The notes: generated from the sequence alone by a model not told the origin. Positions 55,388-64,000 are shown, numbered from the stretch's first letter. The stretch is 64,000 bases of DNA from Alphaproteobacteria bacterium (GCA_017935485.1 JAGBHO010000047.1:99578-163577); one strand, 5' to 3'. A program made the numbers and translations.

Positions 55388-57268
55388 ATGATTGGAAAAA
55401 TTAGAAGTATTCAGGACTCCTGGGTGATGAAGCTGATTTTGATTCTTACGGCCCTGAGTTTTATGTCCCTCTTCGGCGTCTCCGGCTATTATGCCACTGC
55501 TGCCAACAACAAGCCGGTGATTAAGGTAGACGATATTGAAATTACCCAAAGCCAGATTATGAACGAGCTGAACAACGAACTTCAAAAAGCCAAGTCTTTG
55601 TTCGGCGAGAATCTGGACGTGAACGAAGATATCCGCAATGCCCTGCTGCAGGGACTTGTTCAAAAAGAGCTTTCCAATGCCATTTTGCAAAAAACGGCTC
55701 AGGACAACAATGTTTATATCAGCGACGAGCTGATTAAGAAAATTATTTCTTCCCAGCCTGAGTTTATGGACGAGAACGGAAAATTCAGCGTTCAGCGGAT
55801 GCGCCGGATTCTGGCCTCGGTCGGAATGAGCGAGCAGGAATATATTCAGTCGCTGCGCCGTGATATTGAAAAAATCCACCTTGTTTACAATATGGTAGAC
55901 GGCGTTACCGTGCCCGAGTTTATGGCTGATTATCAATACAAGCTCGATAATCAGAAAAAGGTTTTCAAATTTATCAATATTGATCCGGAACAAATGAAAA
56001 TCGACCGTAAAATTTCACAGGATGAAATTGAGCAATATTACAACGATTTTGCCGCCCAGTTTATTGAACCGGAGAATCGGGACGTTTCTTTTATCAGCAT
56101 TTCCAGTGCCGATGCTGCCGGAAAGGTTTTGATTTCCGATGAAGACGTCAAAGCTTATTATGACGAAAACATCAAGCAGTTTGAAGTTCCGGAAAGCAGA
56201 AACATTCTGCAAATGGTCTTTTCAAACAAAGATGACGCAGACAAAGCTTATGCCCAATTGAAAAACGGTGCGGATTTTTATGCCGTTGCCAAGAAAGAGG
56301 CTAATCAGGACAAAGCCGCCACGGAGCTTGGTTTTGTGGAAAAAGACATGCTTATCGGCAATATGGGCGACGTGATGTTCAGCCTGAAAAAAGGCGAGAT
56401 TTCCGAACCGGAAGAATCCGAATACGGATGGCATATTATGAAAGTGACTGACATCCGCCCGATGCAGAAGACATCTTGGGAAAAAGCCAAGGCTAAAATT
56501 GTCGAGGTTTTGCGCCGCGAGCAGTCTGACGAAGCTGCCGGCGACCTGATTGCCAAAATTGAAGACGAAGCCGGCGCCGGAAAATCTTTGGCCGAAATAG
56601 CAAAAGGCCTGAACGTACCGCTCTTGAAAGTTGAGGGTTTGCAGGAAGACGGCAAGGCCGAATCAATGCCGAAAAGTTTTGAGAAGCTTGTGGCTTCGCC
56701 TGATTTTATCGACGCGGCATTTTCTTATAATCAGGATGAAACCAGCCAGGCGGTTGAGACTGATGACGGCTTTGTTTTTGTTAATGTAGACAAGGTTACG
56801 GAACCGCGCCAGAAAGCCATGGACGAAGTTGTGCCCGAGATTGAAAAGATTTGGGCAGGCAACGAAAAGAATGCCATTGCGCAGGAAGTTGTCAATGATG
56901 TGCTTCATGACGTGGAAAACGGCGACAAGATTGAAGACGTGGCCAGACGTTTCGGACTGAAGCTTCAGACGACGGCTCCGTTAAAGAAATCTGACACTTT
57001 TGACGGTTTCTCCGCCCTGCAAATGCAGGAACTGTTCAGAGAGAATATCGGAACGCCGAAAGTCATCGGCGATGACATGCGTCAGGTGATTGTGGTACCG
57101 GCAAAGGTTATTAACAGTTCGGACAAGCTGACAGAAAGCGAGAAAAAAGACATTTTGCGCAAGGCACAATTTGAAACCTCGCAGGAAATGGCTCAGCAGC
57201 TGATTAATGATTACGGTACAAATTACCGGATAAAGATTAAATATAAGGCCATCGGCATTATAGACTAA
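55388..57268 (+). CDS. ppiD: PpiD-like periplasmic chaperone / peptidylprolyl isomerase (SurA N-terminal domain plus parvulin domain)
   Basis: N-terminal TM anchor, SurA_N-like region, and a parvulin-like segment (ELGFVEKDMLIGNMGDVMFSLKKGEISEPEESEYGWHIMKV). 626 aa. Confidence 0.78.
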   Translation: MIGKIRSIQDSWVMKLILILTALSFMSLFGVSGYYATAANNKPVIKVDDIEITQSQIMNELNNELQKAKSLFGENLDVNEDIRNALLQGLVQKELSNAILQKTAQDNNVYISDELIKKIISSQPEFMDENGKFSVQRMRRILASVGMSEQEYIQSLRRDIEKIHLVYNMVDGVTVPEFMADYQYKLDNQKKVFKFINIDPEQMKIDRKISQDEIEQYYNDFAAQFIEPENRDVSFISISSADAAGKVLISDEDVKAYYDENIKQFEVPESRNILQMVFSNKDDADKAYAQLKNGADFYAVAKKEANQDKAATELGFVEKDMLIGNMGDVMFSLKKGEISEPEESEYGWHIMKVTDIRPMQKTSWEKAKAKIVEVLRREQSDEAAGDLIAKIEDEAGAGKSLAEIAKGLNVPLLKVEGLQEDGKAESMPKSFEKLVASPDFIDAAFSYNQDETSQAVETDDGFVFVNVDKVTEPRQKAMDEVVPEIEKIWAGNEKNAIAQEVVNDVLHDVENGDKIEDVARRFGLKLQTTAPLKKSDTFDGFSALQMQELFRENIGTPKVIGDDMRQVIVVPAKVINSSDKLTESEKKDILRKAQFETSQEMAQQLINDYGTNYRIKIKYKAIGIID

Positions 57269-57276
57269 CTCCGGAT

Positions 57277-57308
57277 AAAGCCCTGCTCCGTGCGGGGCTT
57301 TATTTTTT
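57277..57308 (+). terminator. rho-independent terminator after ppiD
   Basis: Stem AAAGCCC / GGGCTTT followed by T6. Confidence 0.7.
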
Positions 57309-57365
57309 GCAAAAAAGGCTTGCCAAATAAAATTATTTGGTTATGGTATTGATGTTTGATTGAAT

Positions 57366-57442
57366 CGGGGTATGGCTCAGCCTGGTAGAGCGCTTGCTTT
57401 GGGAGCAAGATGTCGTGGGTTCGAATCCCGCTGCCCCGACCA
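57366..57442 (+). tRNA. tRNA-Pro (anticodon UGG)
   Basis: Hand-folded. Acceptor CGGGGTA/TGCCCCG, D arm GCTC-AGCCTGGTA-GAGC, anticodon arm CTTGC-TTTGGGA-GCAAG, T arm GTGGG-TTCGAAT-CCCGC, encoded CCA. Confidence 0.95.
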
Positions 57443-57444
57443 CT

Positions 57445-57476
57445 AAAAAAGGGTGCACGAAGTGTGCCCTTTTTTG
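57445..57476 (+). terminator. rho-independent terminator after tRNA-Pro
   Basis: 8-bp stem GGGTGCAC / GTGTGCCC (two G:U pairs) with a GAA loop, followed by T6. Confidence 0.6.
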
Positions 57477-57599
57477 TGGCTTCGGGAAGCTGATGAGAAA
57501 CCACGAGAAAGTGGGTTCGACTACCAGCGAAAGGCGGATGAAAAGACGCCGGTGAACGAAGCGAATGAGCGCCTGTGCAACTCAAGCGGAGCGCAGAGT

Positions 57600-57618
57600 A
57601 ATCCCGCTGCCCCGACCA
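57600..57618 (+). repeat. 19-nt direct repeat of the tRNA-Pro 3' end (att-like)
   Basis: AATCCCGCTGCCCCGACCA at 57600-57618 is identical to 57424-57442. A second partial T-arm copy, GTGGGTTCGA, lies at 57511-57520. Confidence 0.8.
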
Positions 57619-57719
57619 GCCGCGCGGCGGCAGCGTTCAGTTTGGTTTGCGCCGCAGAAAATCCGACATTTATATAATCTTTTTTTTAGTTCATTTCAGA
57701 AAGCTGTTCAGGCGGACTG

Positions 57720-58385
57720 TTGTTTTTTATTGCTTGTTTTATTTATTCGTTATATCTTATTTTATCTTTATTCAGAAAGGGCAGAATTTTGCAGGGGTAT
57801 AATTTAAGCCGCAACAAGAGTTTACGGCTTCCGAAGATTATAGAGAACGAAGCCGGTGTTCTTAATTCCACGGATGATTTGTTTGCAACACGCCAGGCAT
57901 CGGCTCTGGCAGCAGACAAGAAATTTCCGAAAAAGGCCGTTGACGGAGAAGAAAACGACTATGACGCCGAGTTGGAGAGAGTTTTGAAACTGCCTGAAAA
58001 CGCAAGCGAGCTGGTTGTGATTACCAAGGCGAAAAAACTCGGCGCTTATACGATTGCGATAACGGCTAAGTCGCCGGCAAAATTCCGCGGCGTATTTGTC
58101 AGCCGAATGCAGAATTTTTGTCTTGACGCCGTGCAAAATATGCTGAATGCCAATTTTATCCGCGCGGAAGACGAGAAAAGCAAAAAACAACGGGAAAAGT
58201 TTCAGGCAGATGCAATTATCTGTTTGAAAATGCTGGCATATATTGCCATGGTGGCAGAAAATGCCGGATGCATTCTGAAAAGGCAATACAAACAGATTGC
58301 ATTGCAGGCCGGTGAAACAATAAATCTGGCTTTGGCCTGGAAAAAGAGCGATGATGAAAAATGGAGGAATAAGAAAGAGATTTAA
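57720..58385 (+). CDS. avd: DGR accessory variability determinant (Avd-like four-helix-bundle protein), start uncertain
   Basis: The C-terminal about 125 aa (VITKAKKLGAYTIAITAKSPAKFRGVFVSRMQNFCLDAVQNMLNANFIR...KQREKFQADAIICLKMLAYIAMVAENAGCILKRQYKQIALQAGETINLALAWKKSD) fit the remembered Avd pattern (KFPKKYRFTL...LD...AN...Q..A...L..L..L...A.....IS.KQY......E..KLL.GW.KSD). The ORF has no in-frame ATG. Candidate starts are TTG 57972 and GTG 58017. Confidence 0.7.
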   Translation: MFFIACFIYSLYLILSLFRKGRILQGYNLSRNKSLRLPKIIENEAGVLNSTDDLFATRQASALAADKKFPKKAVDGEENDYDAELERVLKLPENASELVVITKAKKLGAYTIAITAKSPAKFRGVFVSRMQNFCLDAVQNMLNANFIRAEDEKSKKQREKFQADAIICLKMLAYIAMVAENAGCILKRQYKQIALQAGETINLALAWKKSDDEKWRNKKEI

Positions 58386-58426
58386 AACCGAAAGGTTTTG
58401 AATGAGGGAAGACTTGTAAATGCCTT

Positions 58427-58538
58427 ATTTGGTCGGCGTCCGCTAATAATAACGGGAATGTTCGCACCGTGAATAATGACGGAAACAAGAACTATAATAA
58501 CCCCAATAAACGAAAGGACGCCGTTCGGCCCGATTTGC
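58427..58538 (+). repeat. DGR template repeat (TR), non-coding
   Basis: 112-nt A-rich repeat homologous to 60068-60181. In the target's reading frame it is dominated by AAY codons (IWSASANNNGNVRTVNNDGNKNYNNPNKRKDAVRPDL). Confidence 0.88.
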
Positions 58539-58797
58539 TTTTGAAGGGAAACACAAAAATTGCGTCAGGCAAAGCCGCAAGTTTCCGGAAAACAAGCCTG
58601 TTTACGGTTTTTATGCAAGAACCGTCCGTGCTGAAAGCAAAGGAAGTTTTCTCTTTTCCGACCGCTGCGGGGGAATATACCATGCGGAGGAAGAATTAAA
58701 AACAGCAAATGTTTTATGAAATACCACATATGTTGACGCAGTTTTGCTTTAATATATTACCGGGTATTTCTTTTTTTGTCCGGAGATAAGACAACGC

Positions 58798-59865
58798 ATG
58801 AATCTAAACAAGATATTTTCATTTGAAAATCTGCTGGAAGCCCACAAACTGTGCCGAAGAAGCAAGCAGCACAAACGCGGCGCCATTATGTTTGAGATTG
58901 AACTCGGCCGCAACATTGTCAAACTGACAGAAGAGCTGGCAAATAAAAAATACAAACTGGGAAAATACAGAAAGTTTACCATTTTTGATCCCAAGAAACG
59001 TCTGATTGAAGCCCTGCCCTACAAAGACAGGGTCGTTCTGATGTGTTTTTGCCGGTATGCGCTTGAGCCGCGGCTGGACTGCCGGCTGATTTTTGACAAT
59101 GCCGCGTCAAGAAAAGGCAAAGGTCCGGAATTTGCCATTGAACGCCTTTGCTGCTTTATCCGCAAACTTTATTGTCAGAAGCCTAATGAAGATATCTATT
59201 TTTTGAAATGCGACATAGCGAAATACTTTCAAAACATCAATCATACGATATTGTTGGAAAAACTGCGGCGATGCGGCTTTTCTGACGACGAGATGTGGTT
59301 TATGGAACAAGTTGTCCGCTCGCATGGCGAATCCGGCGTACCGCTTGGAAATCAGACAAGCCAGTGGTTTGCCCTGCTCTATCTGGATGAGATTGACCGT
59401 CTGATAAAAGAACGGTTGCGTGCTCCGTTTTATATCCGTTACATGGATGATTTTGTTCTGTTAAGCGAAGACAAGGCCTTTTTGCAGCGTTGCCGGAATG
59501 AAATCGGCCAGACCTGCCGTGAGAGTCTGAAATTACAGCTGAACAACAAAACGCAAATCGGACGGCTGAAAGACGGACTGGATTTTCTTGGATATAATTT
59601 TAAGCTTACGGCTACCGGAAAGATTCTTAAAAGCCTGCGCGCCTCGGCCCGCCGCCGGCAACGGCATTATATTAAGATGATTGCCCATTATTATTTGCAG
59701 GACGTGCTTGACGATGAGTATCTTAATGTCCGTTTTAATGCGTTTAAAGCACATATGAAAGGGACTTCGGACTGGAAATTTGTACGTGACCGGTTAAACA
59801 ACCTGAAAAAGAAGAAGCGGCTTATGAAAAAAGCCGAAGATAAAAAATTCTTGCCCGTTTGCTGA
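58798..59865 (+). CDS. DGR-type reverse transcriptase
   Basis: 355 aa. RT motifs include the DGR-typical LGNQTSQWFALLYL (I/LGxxxSQ) and the catalytic YIRYMDDFVL. GGAGA lies upstream of the ATG. Positioned between TR and VR. Confidence 0.9.
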   Translation: MNLNKIFSFENLLEAHKLCRRSKQHKRGAIMFEIELGRNIVKLTEELANKKYKLGKYRKFTIFDPKKRLIEALPYKDRVVLMCFCRYALEPRLDCRLIFDNAASRKGKGPEFAIERLCCFIRKLYCQKPNEDIYFLKCDIAKYFQNINHTILLEKLRRCGFSDDEMWFMEQVVRSHGESGVPLGNQTSQWFALLYLDEIDRLIKERLRAPFYIRYMDDFVLLSEDKAFLQRCRNEIGQTCRESLKLQLNNKTQIGRLKDGLDFLGYNFKLTATGKILKSLRASARRRQRHYIKMIAHYYLQDVLDDEYLNVRFNAFKAHMKGTSDWKFVRDRLNNLKKKKRLMKKAEDKKFLPVC

Positions 59866-59905
59866 AAGTGTAGTATTATTAGTGGTAACTAATGGAGGAA
59901 CTCTA

Positions 59906-61881
59906 ATGAATACAACATTATTGACAGAAGATCAAATCTGGGGAAATCAGGCTCTGGATGTTATGAAGAAGTATGGAACCAGAACGGCATTGACCGATTT
60001 GGCCATTGTATTGGGAGGTTTAATGGGACGTTCTACCACAACCTCTGAGGGTGAACGTTCCGGTTACATTTGGTCGGCGTCCGCTAAGTATTTGCGGGAG
60101 TGTTCGCACCGTGGGTCTTGACGGCTACAAGGGGCTGTCTTTACCCCTATGAACGCTGGGACGCCGTTCGGCCCGCTTTGCCTCCATCCGAAACATCTAA
60201 AATCCGTCCGAACGCAGTGAGGACGCTGAGATTGCCCGAAGGGCAATCGCTCGAAATTTGCGAATTCGGGGCCTATCCCCAAGATATTGTTTCGAAAAAA
60301 ATTTCGAAAAATCTGGAAAATTCTTACCAAAAAAGAAGTCTTAAAACAACCGGAAATTCCTATACTTTCGACAATGCCGGCCTGACCGATTACTCTGCTC
60401 CTTTTCAACCTAAAACATATCAGGAATACGAGGATTCGTCTTCCGGAAAAAGATATGTCCGCGTTGAAGGCAAGCCCGCCGATGAGGATTCGATTCTTTC
60501 CGACGGGACGCTTGTTCAGAACGGAGAGGCTTATTGGCTGGAGGTCAAGCCGATTGAATGGCTGAAAGATCCGAGCGGCGTCTGGGTGGCGAAAAAAGCC
60601 CTTTTCTCCGGTATACAATTTGATTCTAACAGCAACTATGACGGCAATTTCTCTCAAACTGACATGAAGCAGTATCTGGACCGCTATTTCTCAAAGGAAA
60701 TGCAGGCATCCCGCGATTATTCCGCAAGCCGCAGCCGCAATGCCGACGTTTCCGAAGAAAAAAGCTTTATGCCCAAACCACCCTCGGCCAGGCAGAAGAA
60801 ATACGGTATTCAGGTTGTGGACGAACCGATGACGGTTAAAGACCAGATTGACTTTTATGTGCAGAACGGCATGTCTTTTATGCTGCACGGGCCTTCCGGC
60901 GTCGGAAAGACCGCAAGGGTGGAAGCCATTGATCCTGATCTGACTGCCGTACCTTTATGGAACGGCGTTCTGCCTGAAGACGTGGTCGGAAAGGTTCGCT
61001 ATCCGGACGGGAAAACCGGTCTGCCAGACGAGAACAAGTCCGGCGGGGAATGGATCGCACCGGATTGGTATGTGGAATTGTGCAAAAAATGCGAAGCCGA
61101 ACCTGACAAGAACCATGTTTTGTTTATTGACGAGGTGACTAACGCCCGCCCGACAACGCAAAGTTTGATTTTTCATATTACGTTGAAAAAATCCATCAGT
61201 CCCAGTAAAGGCAAGCTGCCTTCCAATGCCGTGGTCGTATTGGCAGGAAACAGCAAAGAAGAATCCGGTGCGGCGTATAATATGCCGGAACCGTTATTCC
61301 GCCGGATGTGCGGGCATATTTATCTGGAAGCAAATGTGCCGGAATGGCTGGAATGGGCCAGCGAAAAGAGTCGGAAGCACCCCGAAGATCCGGAACGTCT
61401 GAACATTCACCCGCTGGTGTCTTCTTTTGTCGGAACTTACGGGCATCAGGTTTTCTATTCTTCTTATGATGAGGAAAACCCGCAGCAATGGGCAATGGAT
61501 CCGCGCGGATGGGAACAGGTTTCGGACATTATTTATGACAACAAAGGCATTATCCGGCGCGAATTGCTGGAAAGCAAAATGGGTAAGGAACTGGCAGCCA
61601 ATCTGCTGGCTTATGCAAAAAATCCGCCGCTTTCACTGGAAGAAGTAATTAACGGCGAATACTCGGAACGTGACATTCCGTCCGGAAACGATGCCCGTTT
61701 GGCATTGACGCTCAGCCTTCGCCATGTGGACGACCGGCAGGTCGGAAAAGTCAGGGATTTTATTCGGGAAAATCTCGGGCGGGAAAACGAGGCCGTCTTT
61801 GATTCTTTCTGGATTGGCAAAGATGACGAGAGAGCTTTGCTGATTGCCCGTCAGAAACAATTTAGAAACGCAGGGAGGTAA
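59906..61881 (+). CDS. DGR target: N-terminal variable module fused to a MoxR-like AAA+ ATPase; split as assembled into ORFs 59906..60121 and 60100..61881 by two 1-nt insertions in the VR
   Basis: ATG 59906 follows GGAGG. The N-terminus has TDLAIVLGG...GYIWSASA, then the VR, then DAVRPALPP, then FGAYPQ...KPIEWLKD. The ATPase has Walker A GPSGVGKT (60889-60912), Walker B VLFIDEV and VVVLAGN. Removing one G near 60088 and one from the run 60131-60134 restores a single frame colinear with the TR. Confidence 0.75.
60068..60181 (+). repeat. DGR variable repeat (VR)
   Basis: 114 nt aligned by hand to the TR. About 22 substitutions, all at TR adenines. The GC-rich 3' end GACGCCGTTCGGCCCG is identical. 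Two extra G residues relative to the TR. Confidence 0.88.
60230..60248 (+). other. perfect hairpin about 50 nt downstream of the VR, a candidate DGR target-recognition structure
   Basis: GATTGCCC-GAA-GGGCAATC, an 8-bp stem with a 3-nt loop, inside the target coding sequence. Confidence 0.35.
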
Positions 61882-61883
61882 GT

Positions 61884-62264
61884 ATGAACAATAAAAAAAT
61901 GCTGTTTGAGCAGGTATTGGACAACAATCCCCGGCATCCGGTTATTTTGGCCGGAAATACGGAGCTTTCCCTGCCCTCCTGCGTATTTATGCCGGCGGAT
62001 ATTGCCGAGCGGGAATTGTTTATTCCGTCTGACTGGAGCAAGGCGCTTGACTTTGAGGCACAAAGGGGAAAAGCTTATCTTTTGATTGAAGGGTTGGACA
62101 AGTTGGCTCCGGCACAGCAAAGAAAATTTTGTATGCTTTTGAAAAACCGGAGGGCCGGAAATTACAAGCTGCCCGACAATGTCAGCATTGTTATTCCGGT
62201 TGCCGACAAATCAGGCTTGTCTGCAGAGATACTATCTCTTTCATTGTTATGGGACGTTGAATAA
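61884..62264 (+). CDS. small protein resembling a P-loop-less AAA core remnant
   Basis: 126 aa. ATG follows GGGAGG, 2 nt after the target stop. AYLLIEGLDKLAPAQQRKFCMLLKNRR...LPDNVSIVIPV parallels HVLFIDEVTNARPTTQSLIFHITLKK...LPSNAVVVLAGN of the upstream ATPase, but no Walker A is visible. Confidence 0.55.
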   Translation: MNNKKMLFEQVLDNNPRHPVILAGNTELSLPSCVFMPADIAERELFIPSDWSKALDFEAQRGKAYLLIEGLDKLAPAQQRKFCMLLKNRRAGNYKLPDNVSIVIPVADKSGLSAEILSLSLLWDVE

Positions 62265-63808
62265 TGCATGCGGACAATAATGACATTGATTATATCAGGG
62301 AGCGGGTTTTACGGAAATTTCCGCTGCTCGGCGTGACGATGTCCGCACTGAACACCGTTGCCGATGACAACATCGGCACAGCAGCAACGGACGGGCGCAC
62401 CGTTTATTATTCTCCAAAGTTTTTCGCACCGCTTTCCGATGATGAAAAAACTTTTATTTACGCGCATGAGGTTATGCATGTGGCTTTTAACCACATTCTA
62501 CGCAGCAAGGACAAAAAACAGCGTTTGTGGAATATAGCGACGGATGCCGTCATCAACCAGATTCTCAAAAACGAAGAATTGCCGATGATTGACGGCGGCG
62601 TAGATATGGCCGAGGCTTTCAATAAATCTGCTGAAGAAATGTATGAAAGGCTTCTCAAAGAACAGGAAGAAAAAGATAAAGATAAAAATCAACAACAGCA
62701 AAATGAAAGCCATTCCGCACAACAGCCTGAAGGCAACAAGCAGCAAAATGCGCCTCAGCCTCAGGATGATAATCAGCCGTCGCCAAACAGTCCTCAAAAA
62801 CAGGAAAATAATGACGGAGACGGAGAAGAAAGCGAACAGGCCGGGCATGACAATCATAATATTTGGAAAAAAGCCGTAGAAATGGCTGAAAAAGAAAAAC
62901 AGCAACAAGAAGAACAACAGAAAGGAAATTCTCCAACGCAGAAGCAGGAGAAATCCGGACAAAGTATTTTGGACAAGTTGAAAGACTTATTTAAAAAGCC
63001 GGAAAAGCCTGCTGACACAGATAAGTCAGAAAGCCAGACACCACAGACAGGAAGCTCTGACGGCGCTGACAGTCCGCGTTCCAAAGGCAATGAGAGTGTT
63101 TATGAAAAAAGGTTTGGCGAAGATAACCGTCAGGAACGTAAAAAACAAGCAGAACAAATCCGCAAGGCTTTACAGCAACATAAAAACGAAGTCCTTAAAG
63201 CGCAATCCGAAGAATATTCCTTTGGTAACGTCGGAGAGGCCAAGGCTGTCACAGACTGGAAAAAACTTTTAAAAAAGACAATCGAAAAAGAAGAAGACCG
63301 ATGGTCTTACCGTCGTTCCGGTGCCGACAACGATTATATGGCCCGTGTGGAAGAACTGGAAGAAGAGAATTTGTCGGAAACTGAAGTCATGCTGGATGTC
63401 AGCGGCTCGGTTGACGAAGGTATGCTTAAAGAATTTTTACGGCAGCTCAAGCCTATTTTAAAGACTTCAAAACTTAAGGTCGGATGTTTTGATCACCGGA
63501 TTTTTGGTTTTAAGGAGATTAAAAATAATCATGACATTGACAATTTCAGGGTTCCGGGCGGCGGAGGAACGAATATTGATCAGGCCGTACGGGCTTTTTC
63601 CAAGAAAAAAGACGTCAATAAGATTGTTTTTACGGACGGGTATTCCGATGATATGCCGCGGCAGGATCTGAAAAATACAAATGTCATCTGGCTTATTTAT
63701 GACAACAAGAATTTTACTCCGGTTTGCGGAAGAGTGATTTATATCGACCGTGCCAAACTCGGTCAGGATTATATGAGAAATGCCTATTTTGCCAGAGGCG
63801 GCAGATAA
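62264..63808 (+). CDS. zincin metallopeptidase-like domain plus VWA-like domain protein (DUF2201-type MoxR partner) with a long disordered insert
   Basis: TAATG overlap with the upstream ORF. N-terminus has TDGRTVYYSP...FIYAHEVMHVAFNHILR (HExxH at 62465-62479) and WNIATDAVIN. An insert of about 190 aa is rich in Q, E, K, N, P and S. C-terminal VWA has the MIDAS-like MLDVSGSVD (63395-63409) and GGGGTN. Confidence 0.75.
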   Translation: MHADNNDIDYIRERVLRKFPLLGVTMSALNTVADDNIGTAATDGRTVYYSPKFFAPLSDDEKTFIYAHEVMHVAFNHILRSKDKKQRLWNIATDAVINQILKNEELPMIDGGVDMAEAFNKSAEEMYERLLKEQEEKDKDKNQQQQNESHSAQQPEGNKQQNAPQPQDDNQPSPNSPQKQENNDGDGEESEQAGHDNHNIWKKAVEMAEKEKQQQEEQQKGNSPTQKQEKSGQSILDKLKDLFKKPEKPADTDKSESQTPQTGSSDGADSPRSKGNESVYEKRFGEDNRQERKKQAEQIRKALQQHKNEVLKAQSEEYSFGNVGEAKAVTDWKKLLKKTIEKEEDRWSYRRSGADNDYMARVEELEEENLSETEVMLDVSGSVDEGMLKEFLRQLKPILKTSKLKVGCFDHRIFGFKEIKNNHDIDNFRVPGGGGTNIDQAVRAFSKKKDVNKIVFTDGYSDDMPRQDLKNTNVIWLIYDNKNFTPVCGRVIYIDRAKLGQDYMRNAYFARGGR

Positions 63809-63854
63809 ATTTGTACCGACATGAATATTATCTGAAAAAAATTGAAAAAAATTC

Positions 63855-63883
63855 TTGTAAATAAAAAAGAAAAAATGTATATT
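63855..63883 (+). promoter_or_regulatory. sigma70-like promoter candidate upstream of tRNA-Arg
   Basis: TTGTAA, 17-nt spacer, TATATT. This is the same layout as the tRNA-Lys candidate. Confidence 0.3.
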
Positions 63884-63946
63884 CCCTTTTGTAATTATGG
63901 CAAGCGTATTTTTTTAATGTGTTTTTGCCCGTAAATTCTATCTTTT

Positions 63947-64000
63947 GCGCCCTTAGCTCAGCTGGATAGAGCAACAGCCTTCTAAGCTGTGGGTCAGACG
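63947..64000 (+). tRNA. tRNA-Arg (anticodon UCU), truncated by the window edge
   Basis: Acceptor GCGCCCT, D arm GCTC-AGCTGGATA-GAGC, anticodon arm ACAGC-CTTCTAA-GCTGT. The T arm and 3' end lie outside the window. Confidence 0.85.

Follow-up and report, generated by a model that had tools for sequence, protein, structure and literature searches.

In the large surveys of diversity-generating retroelements (DGRs), the variable repeat (VR) of the target protein is C-terminal and lies in a C-type-lectin fold, an arrangement that lets the signals for retrohoming stay outside the coding sequence (PMC8144416); N-terminal VRs are on record in 3 of 372 DGRs. Here we describe a DGR in a 64,000-nucleotide (nt) stretch of DNA ("the window") from a gut Alphaproteobacteria bacterium (GCA_017935485.1 JAGBHO010000047.1:99578-163577), the VR of which lies near the N-terminus of a predicted MoxR-class AAA+ ATPase. 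The described systems that it most resembles are the DGR of Bordetella phage BPP-1 (avd-TR-brt acting on mtd, where TR is the template repeat and brt encodes the reverse transcriptase, RT); the tentaclins, phage DGR targets with an N-terminal DUF6273-like C-type-lectin domain that carries the VR (PMC10743442); the DGR-diversified MoxR/vWA (VMAP) ternary conflict systems of cyanobacteria and Thiohalocapsa (PMC7159879, PMC10907252); and the MoxR AAA+/metallopeptidase-vWA pair described in group 2.2 jumbo phages (PMC7824862).

We consider it highly probable that the locus is a genuine chromosomal DGR, that its avd, TR-spacer and RT machinery is intact and was recently active, and that its target, a putative sensor, is at present frameshifted. 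An earlier note on this DNA, made from the sequence alone, had called the DGR complete and had left the target unidentified; completeness holds for the diversifying machinery (avd, TR, spacer and RT) but not for the target gene as it now stands. The parts of the element are listed here with the basis of each assignment (amino acids, aa; initiation of mutagenic homing, IMH; open reading frame, ORF).

58427..58538, + strand: TR, 112 nt with 37 adenines, with an IMH*-like 3' end at 58517-58538 (alignment, exact counts)
60068..60181, + strand: VR, 114 nt, with an IMH-like GC-rich end at 60160-60181 (alignment, exact counts)
57789..58385, + strand: avd-like accessory gene, 198 aa, TTG start (gene call on the identical contig L081)
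58539..58797, + strand: non-coding TR-spacer RNA region (conservation over 7 loci, RNAalifold covariation)
58798..59865, + strand: DGR reverse transcriptase, 355 aa, intact (Pfam RVT_1, PDB match, motifs)
59906..61881, + strand: target gene, ~657 codons after removal of two inserted bases (ORF frames, homologues)
60205..60248, + strand: two hairpins within the target coding sequence (RNAalifold, 9 loci)

Results

Adenine-specific substitution and recent diversification

Local alignment of 58400-58570 against 60040-60215 brought TR and VR together end to end, at the coordinates and over the full length that the earlier note had given them. Counted after removal of the two inserted VR bases discussed below, the core holds 22 substitutions, all of them at TR adenines (22 of 37; A to G 9, A to T 8, A to C 5), whereas none of the 75 C, G or T positions of the TR is changed in the VR (base content of the 112 nt: 37 A, 26 G, 26 C and 23 T). 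That 22 changes out of 22 should fall on A by chance has a hypergeometric probability of 8e-14. The hand count of about 22 of about 37 adenines, with none elsewhere, is therefore exact, and the computed alignment gave no trace, at any of the 75 positions, of the non-A substitutions at a similar rate that the note had named as evidence against a DGR.

Codon position 1 or 2 was hit by 20 of the 22 substitutions. Translated in the target frame the TR reads WSASANNNGNVRTVNNDGNKNYNNPNKRKDAVRPDL, with 11 AAY codons (the richness in such codons had been noticed before), and the repaired VR reads WSASANICGSVRTVGLDGYKGCLYPYERWDAVRPAL; 18 variable VR positions give about 7e18 possible peptides. The first 20 nt are identical in the two repeats, and near their 3' ends both carry the same 16-nt GC-rich block, GACGCCGTTCGGCCCG (58517-58532 in the TR, 60160-60175 in the VR), which is followed by A in the TR and by C in the VR, then by TTTGC in both and then by divergence. 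This A/C difference is fixed across all related lineages, as expected for an IMH*/IMH pair, and the block, with its shared GC-rich ends that then diverge, is IMH-like in the VR and IMH*-like in the TR, much as had been proposed. The 64-kb window contains no third copy of the repeat.

Comparison with related loci and proteins (numbered L and P below) indicates that the DGR has recently been active in this lineage. Full-length homologues of the repaired target are abundant (including some of ~650 aa). The 90%-identity cluster around P0001 consists of proteins from gut Alphaproteobacteria metagenome-assembled genomes (MAGs) that are near-identical outside residues 61-85, and its eight full-length members carry eight different VR peptides, which vary only at TR-adenine codons. 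The TR is kept in L001, L002 and L082 (0-6 changes, the TRs of L002 and L082 being identical or 1 nt apart) while the VRs differ at many A positions, and the VRs of strains more than 96% identical differ only at TR-adenine codons. The check that the earlier note had proposed, whether VR polymorphism in related genomes is confined to positions that are A in the TR, was run on these strains and was positive.

A frameshift within the variable repeat

The lengths of the two repeats had been given correctly in the earlier note, but the difference between 112 and 114 nt is not harmless: it consists of two frameshifting insertions that the note overlooked. These are separate +1 insertions in the VR, near 60088 (AA-TAAT becoming AAGTATT) and near 60131 (CAA-GAAC becoming CAAGGGGC), each beside an AAY codon. 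Because of these two single bases the VR is out of frame with its own gene; the upstream part of the target, in frame 2 from the ATG at 59906, stops at a TGA (60119-60121; ORF 59906-60121), and the downstream part is a frame-1 ORF (60100-61881). Removal of the two bases yields a single 657-aa protein, 96% identical to P0001. The target in this genome is frameshifted and presumably off.

Differences in length between TR and VR have been found in 7% of DGRs, 74% of them next to AAC, and frameshifts in 11 of 372 DGRs, the indels being ascribed to RT slippage (Wu et al., PMC5758913). Two +1 insertions beside AAY are the known signature of such slippage, and the window fits the published pattern. 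A strain 98.6% identical to the window (L082) has other lesions at the same spots, deletions of 8 and 1 nt (-8 and -1) that expose the same TGA between them, and P0132 has a one-codon deletion at the VR hot spot.

On another reading, the DGR would be genuine, yet the two additional bases would have arisen in assembly or consensus calling from a mixed VR population, and the cells would have an intact target; in our view this is unlikely. The VRs of co-occurring strains are indeed hypervariable, which makes for difficult assembly; the second insertion is part of a GGGG run; and the sole corroborating contig, L081, which carries the window's VR allele, is 100% identical to the window over 6,784 nt and may share its data source. 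However, chimeras of equal-length VR variants keep register and cannot create indels, the first insertion (AAGTAT) is outside any homopolymer, and L082, which has a different ENA sample accession and contig name, carries different indels at the same A-rich spots. Moreover, the truncated family proteins described below come from many assemblies, and frameshifting TR/VR indels next to AAC are already on record (PMC5758913).

Null alleles in related loci

The VR is disrupted in 5 of the 9 distinct DGR-bearing loci (+1/+1 in the window, -8/-1 in L082, TGA in L003, TGA and TAA in L088, and TGA in L004) and intact in the other 4 (L001, L002, L084 and L107), whereas none of 5 DGR-less or DGR-decayed loci, all five with intact genes for the target, has a null VR; the contrast of 5/9 versus 0/5 gives a Fisher P of about 0.08, an estimate from a small sample. 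Retrieval gave 148 family proteins, 96 of them of full length, while ~28, about a fifth, begin within the VR or directly behind it. These truncated proteins are not accounted for by contig ends, because many of them sit on contigs of 36-440 kb. About two dozen of the best 150 matches to the N-terminal module (described below) are fragments of at most 120 aa that end in the VR; for some of them the contig may simply stop there.

A TR rich in AAY is generally described as ruling out stop codons. An in-frame TAA is present in the TRs of L003 (5639-5749), L088 (2464-2593) and L004 (5707-5789), at the same position in the first two and at another in L004; the VR codon is TGA in all three, and intact relatives carry W or L there. 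Copies of such TRs that are unmutated or partly mutated give TAA, TAG or TGA. The TR of the window has no stop codon, and three Lys codons (AAG, AAA and AAG) in it are mutable to stops. Reading the VR TGA of L004 as a sense codon (code 4) was considered and rejected, since five ORFs of 440-590 aa are open under code 11 in this 30%-GC locus.

Since the VR occupies codons 56-91, the entire MoxR ATPase is lost whenever the VR acquires a nonsense or frameshift change. It is conceivable, though we hold the idea only tentatively and think it rather improbable, that the DGR is a stochastic on/off switch as well as a diversifier. If so, a population could hedge its bets, keeping a costly or autoreactive cytoplasmic sensor-protease in some cells and silencing it in others, and the frequency of null VR alleles makes the question directly testable with existing metagenomic reads. 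In part the null-allele signal reflects decay, as L004 (with a stop in the RT) and L088 (with a further frameshift) look degenerate.

We regard it as quite unlikely that decay accounts for the window itself, so that the target would be a pseudogene heading for loss on which the DGR no longer acts. There are relatives that would fit such a course: L088 has two stops in the VR and a further frameshift downstream, L004 has stops in both RT and VR, L086 has a truncated TR and a frameshifted RT, and several others carry the target module without a DGR. In the window, by contrast, none of avd, TR, spacer and RT is damaged; the target is free of further lesions over the 1.75 kb 3' of the VR, the protein encoded there being 98-99% identical to intact alleles; and the differences between TR and VR are still confined to A, whereas non-A differences would build up after inactivation (the argument of PMC3521204). 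An intact and recently active DGR beside a currently frameshifted target is the reading that we carry forward.

Reverse transcriptase, Avd and spacer RNA

The intact 355-aa RT with LGNQTSQ and YMDD motifs that the earlier note had described is there: the ORF is uninterrupted, its translation holds both motifs and matches Pfam RVT_1 (E = 2e-18), and its best PDB match is 8ub7 chain A (328 aa, E = 4e-33), the next being a group II intron RT (5e-13). We identified 8ub7 as Bordetella bRT by its length of 328 aa and by Arg74 and Ile181 at the residues given in PMC7826257; in the 8ub7 alignment the window RT keeps Arg74 and has Leu at the position of Ile181. The DGR clade of RTs is defined by the SQ motif (PMC3521204). 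We fetched 80 loci with RT relatives and ran a self-comparison on the first 40, of which 27 contain A-biased repeat pairs, as do L001 and L002 by direct search. Together, the motifs, bRT as the best solved relative and the A-biased repeats beside its relatives support a DGR-type RT. That the repeats belong instead to another retroelement (a group II intron, retron or defence-type RT), their A-bias being coincidental, is next to impossible, for although NCBIfam models of group II intron, Drt3a and retron RTs give weak partial matches and PADLOC lists DRT-type RTs, these NCBIfam scores are far under their cut-offs, bRT leads the other solved relatives by 20 orders of magnitude, neither an intron RNA (Rfam shows tRNAs only) nor a maturase or endonuclease domain is present, and the chance of the A-only pattern is the 8e-14 given above.

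The avd-like gene has the position and size expected for Avd, and its place 5' of the TR is kept among related loci. Pfam bAvd (PF22296) is matched by all 6 of 6 orthologues, the window's included, over profile positions 1-106 of 107 (best E = 1.6e-5), and the match to NCBIfam DivGenRetAVD has E = 0.002 (18 bits against a cut-off of 80); PDB sequence searches with the protein gave no match. The bAvd-like four-helix region occupies the C-terminal ~110 aa and is preceded by a conserved N-terminal extension of ~85 aa. For the Avd-like four-helix-bundle ORF of the earlier note there are thus full-length bAvd matches and the right position on the one hand and scores below thresholds on the other, and by these comparisons the gene is likely, but not proven, to encode Avd.

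The 259-nt spacer between TR and RT is conserved in 7 loci, down to one in which the RT is 49% identical. In this small sample for covariation (7 sequences only, 3 of them close), the RNAalifold consensus fold has 44 pairs, with 96% of cells paired versus 43-55% in slid controls and 16 pairs changed on both sides versus 4-6; none of 500 shuffles reached the observed values. An outer helix pairs the last TR bases (58530-58541) with 58634-58643 and encloses hairpins. An ORF at 58469-58699 is simply the TR reading frame running on into the spacer; the earlier note was right to call the interval non-coding and its ORF spurious. BPP-1 has a TR-spacer RNA, and the covarying structure found here fits a structured RNA of that kind. 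In a search of 57000-64000 at E <= 1, Rfam gave two tRNAs only; neither the spacer nor the segment that follows tRNA-Pro matched a known RNA family.

A conserved TTGACG-N16-TATTAC (58733-58760; TATTAT in relatives) lies in the spacer just 5' of the RT start and may be an internal RT promoter; it was not listed by a generic promoter scan, the matches of which were not above chance.

Target protein

The VR corresponds to residues 56-91 of the ~657-aa target and is followed by 565 residues; in the canonical relatives fetched, it ends within 7 residues of the stop codon. The AlphaFold model of the target, made with 68 homologues (mean confidence, pLDDT, 86.5), has a compact N-domain (residues 1-265, pLDDT ~95) that a disordered linker (270-289) joins to an ATPase, the C-terminal region of which is helical. 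The top Foldseek matches of the ATPase part are CbbQ (6l1q) and NorQ (9qh4-9qhg, including NorQ-NorD(VWA) complexes), with E = 1e-9 to 1e-7; the Walker A (GPSGVGKT) and Walker B (VLFIDEV) motifs are invariant in the family, and the Pfam AAA_5 match is sub-threshold (19.6 bits versus a cut-off of 22). Judged by its modelled fold, the C-terminal part is a MoxR-class AAA+ ATPase. Read by eye, the N-terminus has no long hydrophobic stretch, and from this the protein is predicted to be cytoplasmic. PDB sequence searches with the whole target gave no matches, nor did those with the DUF2201 protein encoded downstream.

Modelled alone, the N-domain has a pLDDT of 95.4 and a predicted template-modelling score (pTM) of 0.93. 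A profile of residues 1-102 retrieved 781 clusters at 50% identity (311 of them at E <= 1e-10); the ~100-aa module is N-terminal in all but six of the best 150 matches, and the proteins that bear it, ~260 to 890 aa long, include tandem copies and other fusions. In P0218 (892 aa), P0180, P0209 and P0174 the N-domain occurs as tandem duplicates or as two copies before the same ATPase, and among these four it is also found joined to MORN or to DUF4116 repeats, or by itself with a tail of coiled coil; these other architectures point to a large uncharacterised domain family.

The N-domain may be related, if only remotely, to DUF6273, the module in which targets of gut Firmicutes and of phages have their C-terminal VRs. 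Three leads connect its first ~100 residues with the half of DUF6273 that bears the VR. The window TR aligns full-length with the TR of L005 (score 40 versus a shuffle maximum of 30), where the target has a C-terminal VR in a DUF6273-like domain ending in FWLRSA...VRPALWISL (itself a weak DUF6273 match), and the distance between W and VRPAL, 31 residues, is the same in the two targets. Two N-domains stand in tandem in P0209, and a Pfam DUF6273 match spans the boundary between them (residues 214-375, profile 5-170, 26.3 bits versus a cut-off of 23.5); this single protein suggests that the halves of DUF6273 stand in swapped order in the N-domain.

Because the VR is 5'-proximal, the IMH and any downstream signals lie within coding sequence, and the peptide RPALPxSETSKIRP, which comes next after the VR, belongs to the family's best-conserved stretches. 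Downstream of the VR are two hairpins. The first (60205-60225), 23 nt 3' of it, is CGTCC-N11-GGACG, with a 5-bp stem and a conserved 11-nt loop; the second (60230-60248), which is absent from some lineages, is GATTGCCC-GAA-GGGCAATC, with an 8-bp stem and a GAA loop. Across the 9 loci compared, both stems keep pairing through two-sided changes, such as CGCCC/GGGCx and TTTCC/GGAAA in L003, CCAC/GTGG in L004 and CCTGCCC/GGGCAGG in L088. A hairpin is reportedly required for target recognition in BPP-1, and by that analogy the two found here are candidate target-recognition elements.

Gene neighborhood

The remaining features of the cassette are as follows.

57366..57442, + strand: tRNA-Pro(TGG), the upstream cassette boundary (ARAGORN; Rfam tRNA, 66 bits)
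61884..62264, + strand: conserved small ORF, 126 aa (in every related locus)
62264..63808, + strand: DUF2201 protein, HExxH metallopeptidase-like and VWA-like (Pfam)

A further tRNA gene is cut by the window end (63947-64000); it is tRNA-Arg(TCT) in the syntenic L002, L081 and L082, so the whole cassette lies between tRNA-Pro and tRNA-Arg. Judged by position, the target gene, the small ORF and the metallopeptidase-VWA gene would be co-transcribed. The DUF2201 protein, the gene of which is syntenic in all related loci, matches Pfam DUF2201_N (E = 1e-29) and DUF2201 (E = 1e-12), with the metallopeptidase-like part N-terminal and the VWA-like part C-terminal. Its low-complexity linker (62650-63250 in the window), between the two domains, is ~200 aa long, rich in Q, E, K, N and S and variable in length, the orthologues being 476-518 aa. 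Family searches with the 126-aa product gave no match; by eye, its stretch LLIEGLD...KLPDNVSIVI resembles an AAA+ Walker B motif and the strand after it, and the ORF may be a degenerate ATPase fragment.

The order of the five-gene cassette, avd-TR-RT-target-small-DUF2201, is conserved and is found again in MAGs of Alphaproteobacteria and in a single MAG of Bacilli. The module of ATPase, small ORF and DUF2201 also occurs without any avd, TR or RT (L105, 1159-7521; L102; L103; L083), in L105 at the same position as in the window, adjoining secG-tpiA-ppiD, and in L086 the truncated TR and frameshifted RT remain beside it. Since the three-gene target module exists without a DGR, the DGR is an optional add-on to a pre-existing module.

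The element is chromosomal; a phage-borne cassette was considered and rejected, a viral-contig scan having given one weak partial match. The last 19 nt of tRNA-Pro (AATCCCGCTGCCCCGACCA) are repeated at 57600-57618, 176 nt downstream, past a terminator hairpin and a segment of ~130 nt. Strains differ in how often this unit occurs: L002 has no extra copy, the window, L081 and L082 have one each, and L001 (4400-4960), which lacks the 5' part of the tRNA, has more. There is no integrase near the unit, and the unit does not flank the DGR. The idea that the repeats are the ends of a mobile DGR island was rejected, since both copies are 5' of avd and no integrase accompanies them; L105, with the target module at the same ppiD-adjacent position and no DGR, also counters it. 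A hammerhead in the segment after tRNA-Pro (CUGAUGAG motif) was likewise rejected, as the Rfam search gave no such family.

Discussion

If this DGR works as that of BPP-1 does, an RT-Avd complex would copy the TR-spacer RNA into cDNA, misincorporating opposite adenines, and the cDNA would then take the place of the VR, with the GC-rich IMH, and perhaps also the hairpins that closely follow it, as guides. Fresh retrohoming from the intact TR could then restore the frameshifted target. The hypervariable N-domain may be the ligand- or substrate-recognition surface of a MoxR/VWA-peptidase machine, which might serve as an invader sensor or as a retargetable chaperone-protease.

Several points weigh against this picture. 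Retrohoming, priming and the role of the hairpins are taken over from BPP-1 by analogy, and a sensor or protease function we only infer; no PADLOC defence model matches the target, the small ORF or the DUF2201 protein. The N-domain has no significant Foldseek match to a solved C-type lectin or to any other fold (best in the PDB, E = 0.13; none in BFVD), no direct Pfam match and an empty PDB profile search; compared with an alignment of DUF6273 targets, it has an hhalign probability of 2%, and circularly permuted N-domain constructs of close family members do not match Pfam DUF6273. The bAvd scores are all under the curated cut-off of 40 bits, the window's own match having 17.6 bits. Finally, the allele seen in L081 is not independent support for the frameshift, as that contig may derive from the same data as the window.

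Of the known systems, the BPP-1 DGR shares most of the machinery: an Avd-like gene, a TR directly upstream of the RT with a structured TR-spacer RNA, A-specific substitutions from an AAY-rich TR, a GC-rich IMH common to TR and VR and followed by bases specific to each, and an RT (bRT) that is the closest solved relative of the one described here. The differences are that our target is downstream of the RT and that of BPP-1 upstream; that the VR is at codons 56-91 of 657 and not C-terminal; that the target is a predicted cytoplasmic AAA+ ATPase encoded by a chromosomal element, whereas that of BPP-1 is a phage tail fibre; and that the putative Avd has an extra N-terminal region of ~85 aa.

The tentaclins likewise have the IMH and downstream elements within coding sequence, and they too come from gut-microbiome sources. 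However, tentaclins run on into Ig or Fn3 domains, the series closing with a conserved Ig domain at the C-terminus, and are phage virion or adhesin proteins, whereas in our locus, a cellular operon, a MoxR ATPase comes after the module, and DUF6273 is not directly detectable. The tentaclin architecture is not the one found in our target, in which a linker and an AAA+ ATPase follow the N-domain and Pfam gave no Ig or Fn3 matches.

With the VMAP systems the locus shares the coupling of a DGR to a MoxR-class AAA+ ATPase and a vWA protein, as well as a hypervariable, predicted cytoplasmic ligand-binding domain that has been proposed as a sensor. In those systems, however, which belong to multicellular or filamentous hosts, the vWA or STAND protein bears the variable FGS/CLec domain, invariably at its C-terminus, and a separate VMAP protein is present; in our locus it is the ATPase that bears the variable domain, at its N-terminus, a metallopeptidase domain is part of the vWA protein, and the hosts are known from gut Alphaproteobacteria MAGs and one Bacilli MAG. 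No VMAP, trypsin, caspase or TIR protein was found in the cassette (ATPase, 126-aa ORF and DUF2201) with Pfam, as distinct from the profiles of Kaur et al. 2020.

The jumbo-phage pair, NorQ-NorD and CbbQ-CbbO all join a MoxR-class hexameric ATPase to a vWA partner, and in the jumbo-phage pair the partner has an N-terminal metallopeptidase domain, as does ours (HExxH). Their ATPases lack a DGR-diversified N-terminal domain, and their substrates are fixed (NOR, Rubisco and, as proposed, virion proteins).

DGRs, TR/VR indels, N-terminal VRs (in tentaclins) and links between DGRs and MoxR/vWA proteins have thus each been published separately; the literature searched, which did not extend to subscription journals, contained no description of a DGR-diversified N-terminal module on a MoxR ATPase that has a metallopeptidase-VWA protein as its partner. 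Against the surveys with which we began, the rule of the C-terminal VR is broken here in a cellular, predicted cytoplasmic protein, with the IMH-like block and two covarying hairpins inside a strongly conserved coding stretch. Should the N-domain prove to be a substrate selector, common gut bacteria would possess a naturally retargetable AAA+/protease machine, and DGR-diversified cytoplasmic sensors, as proposed for the VMAP systems, would reach beyond multicellular bacteria.

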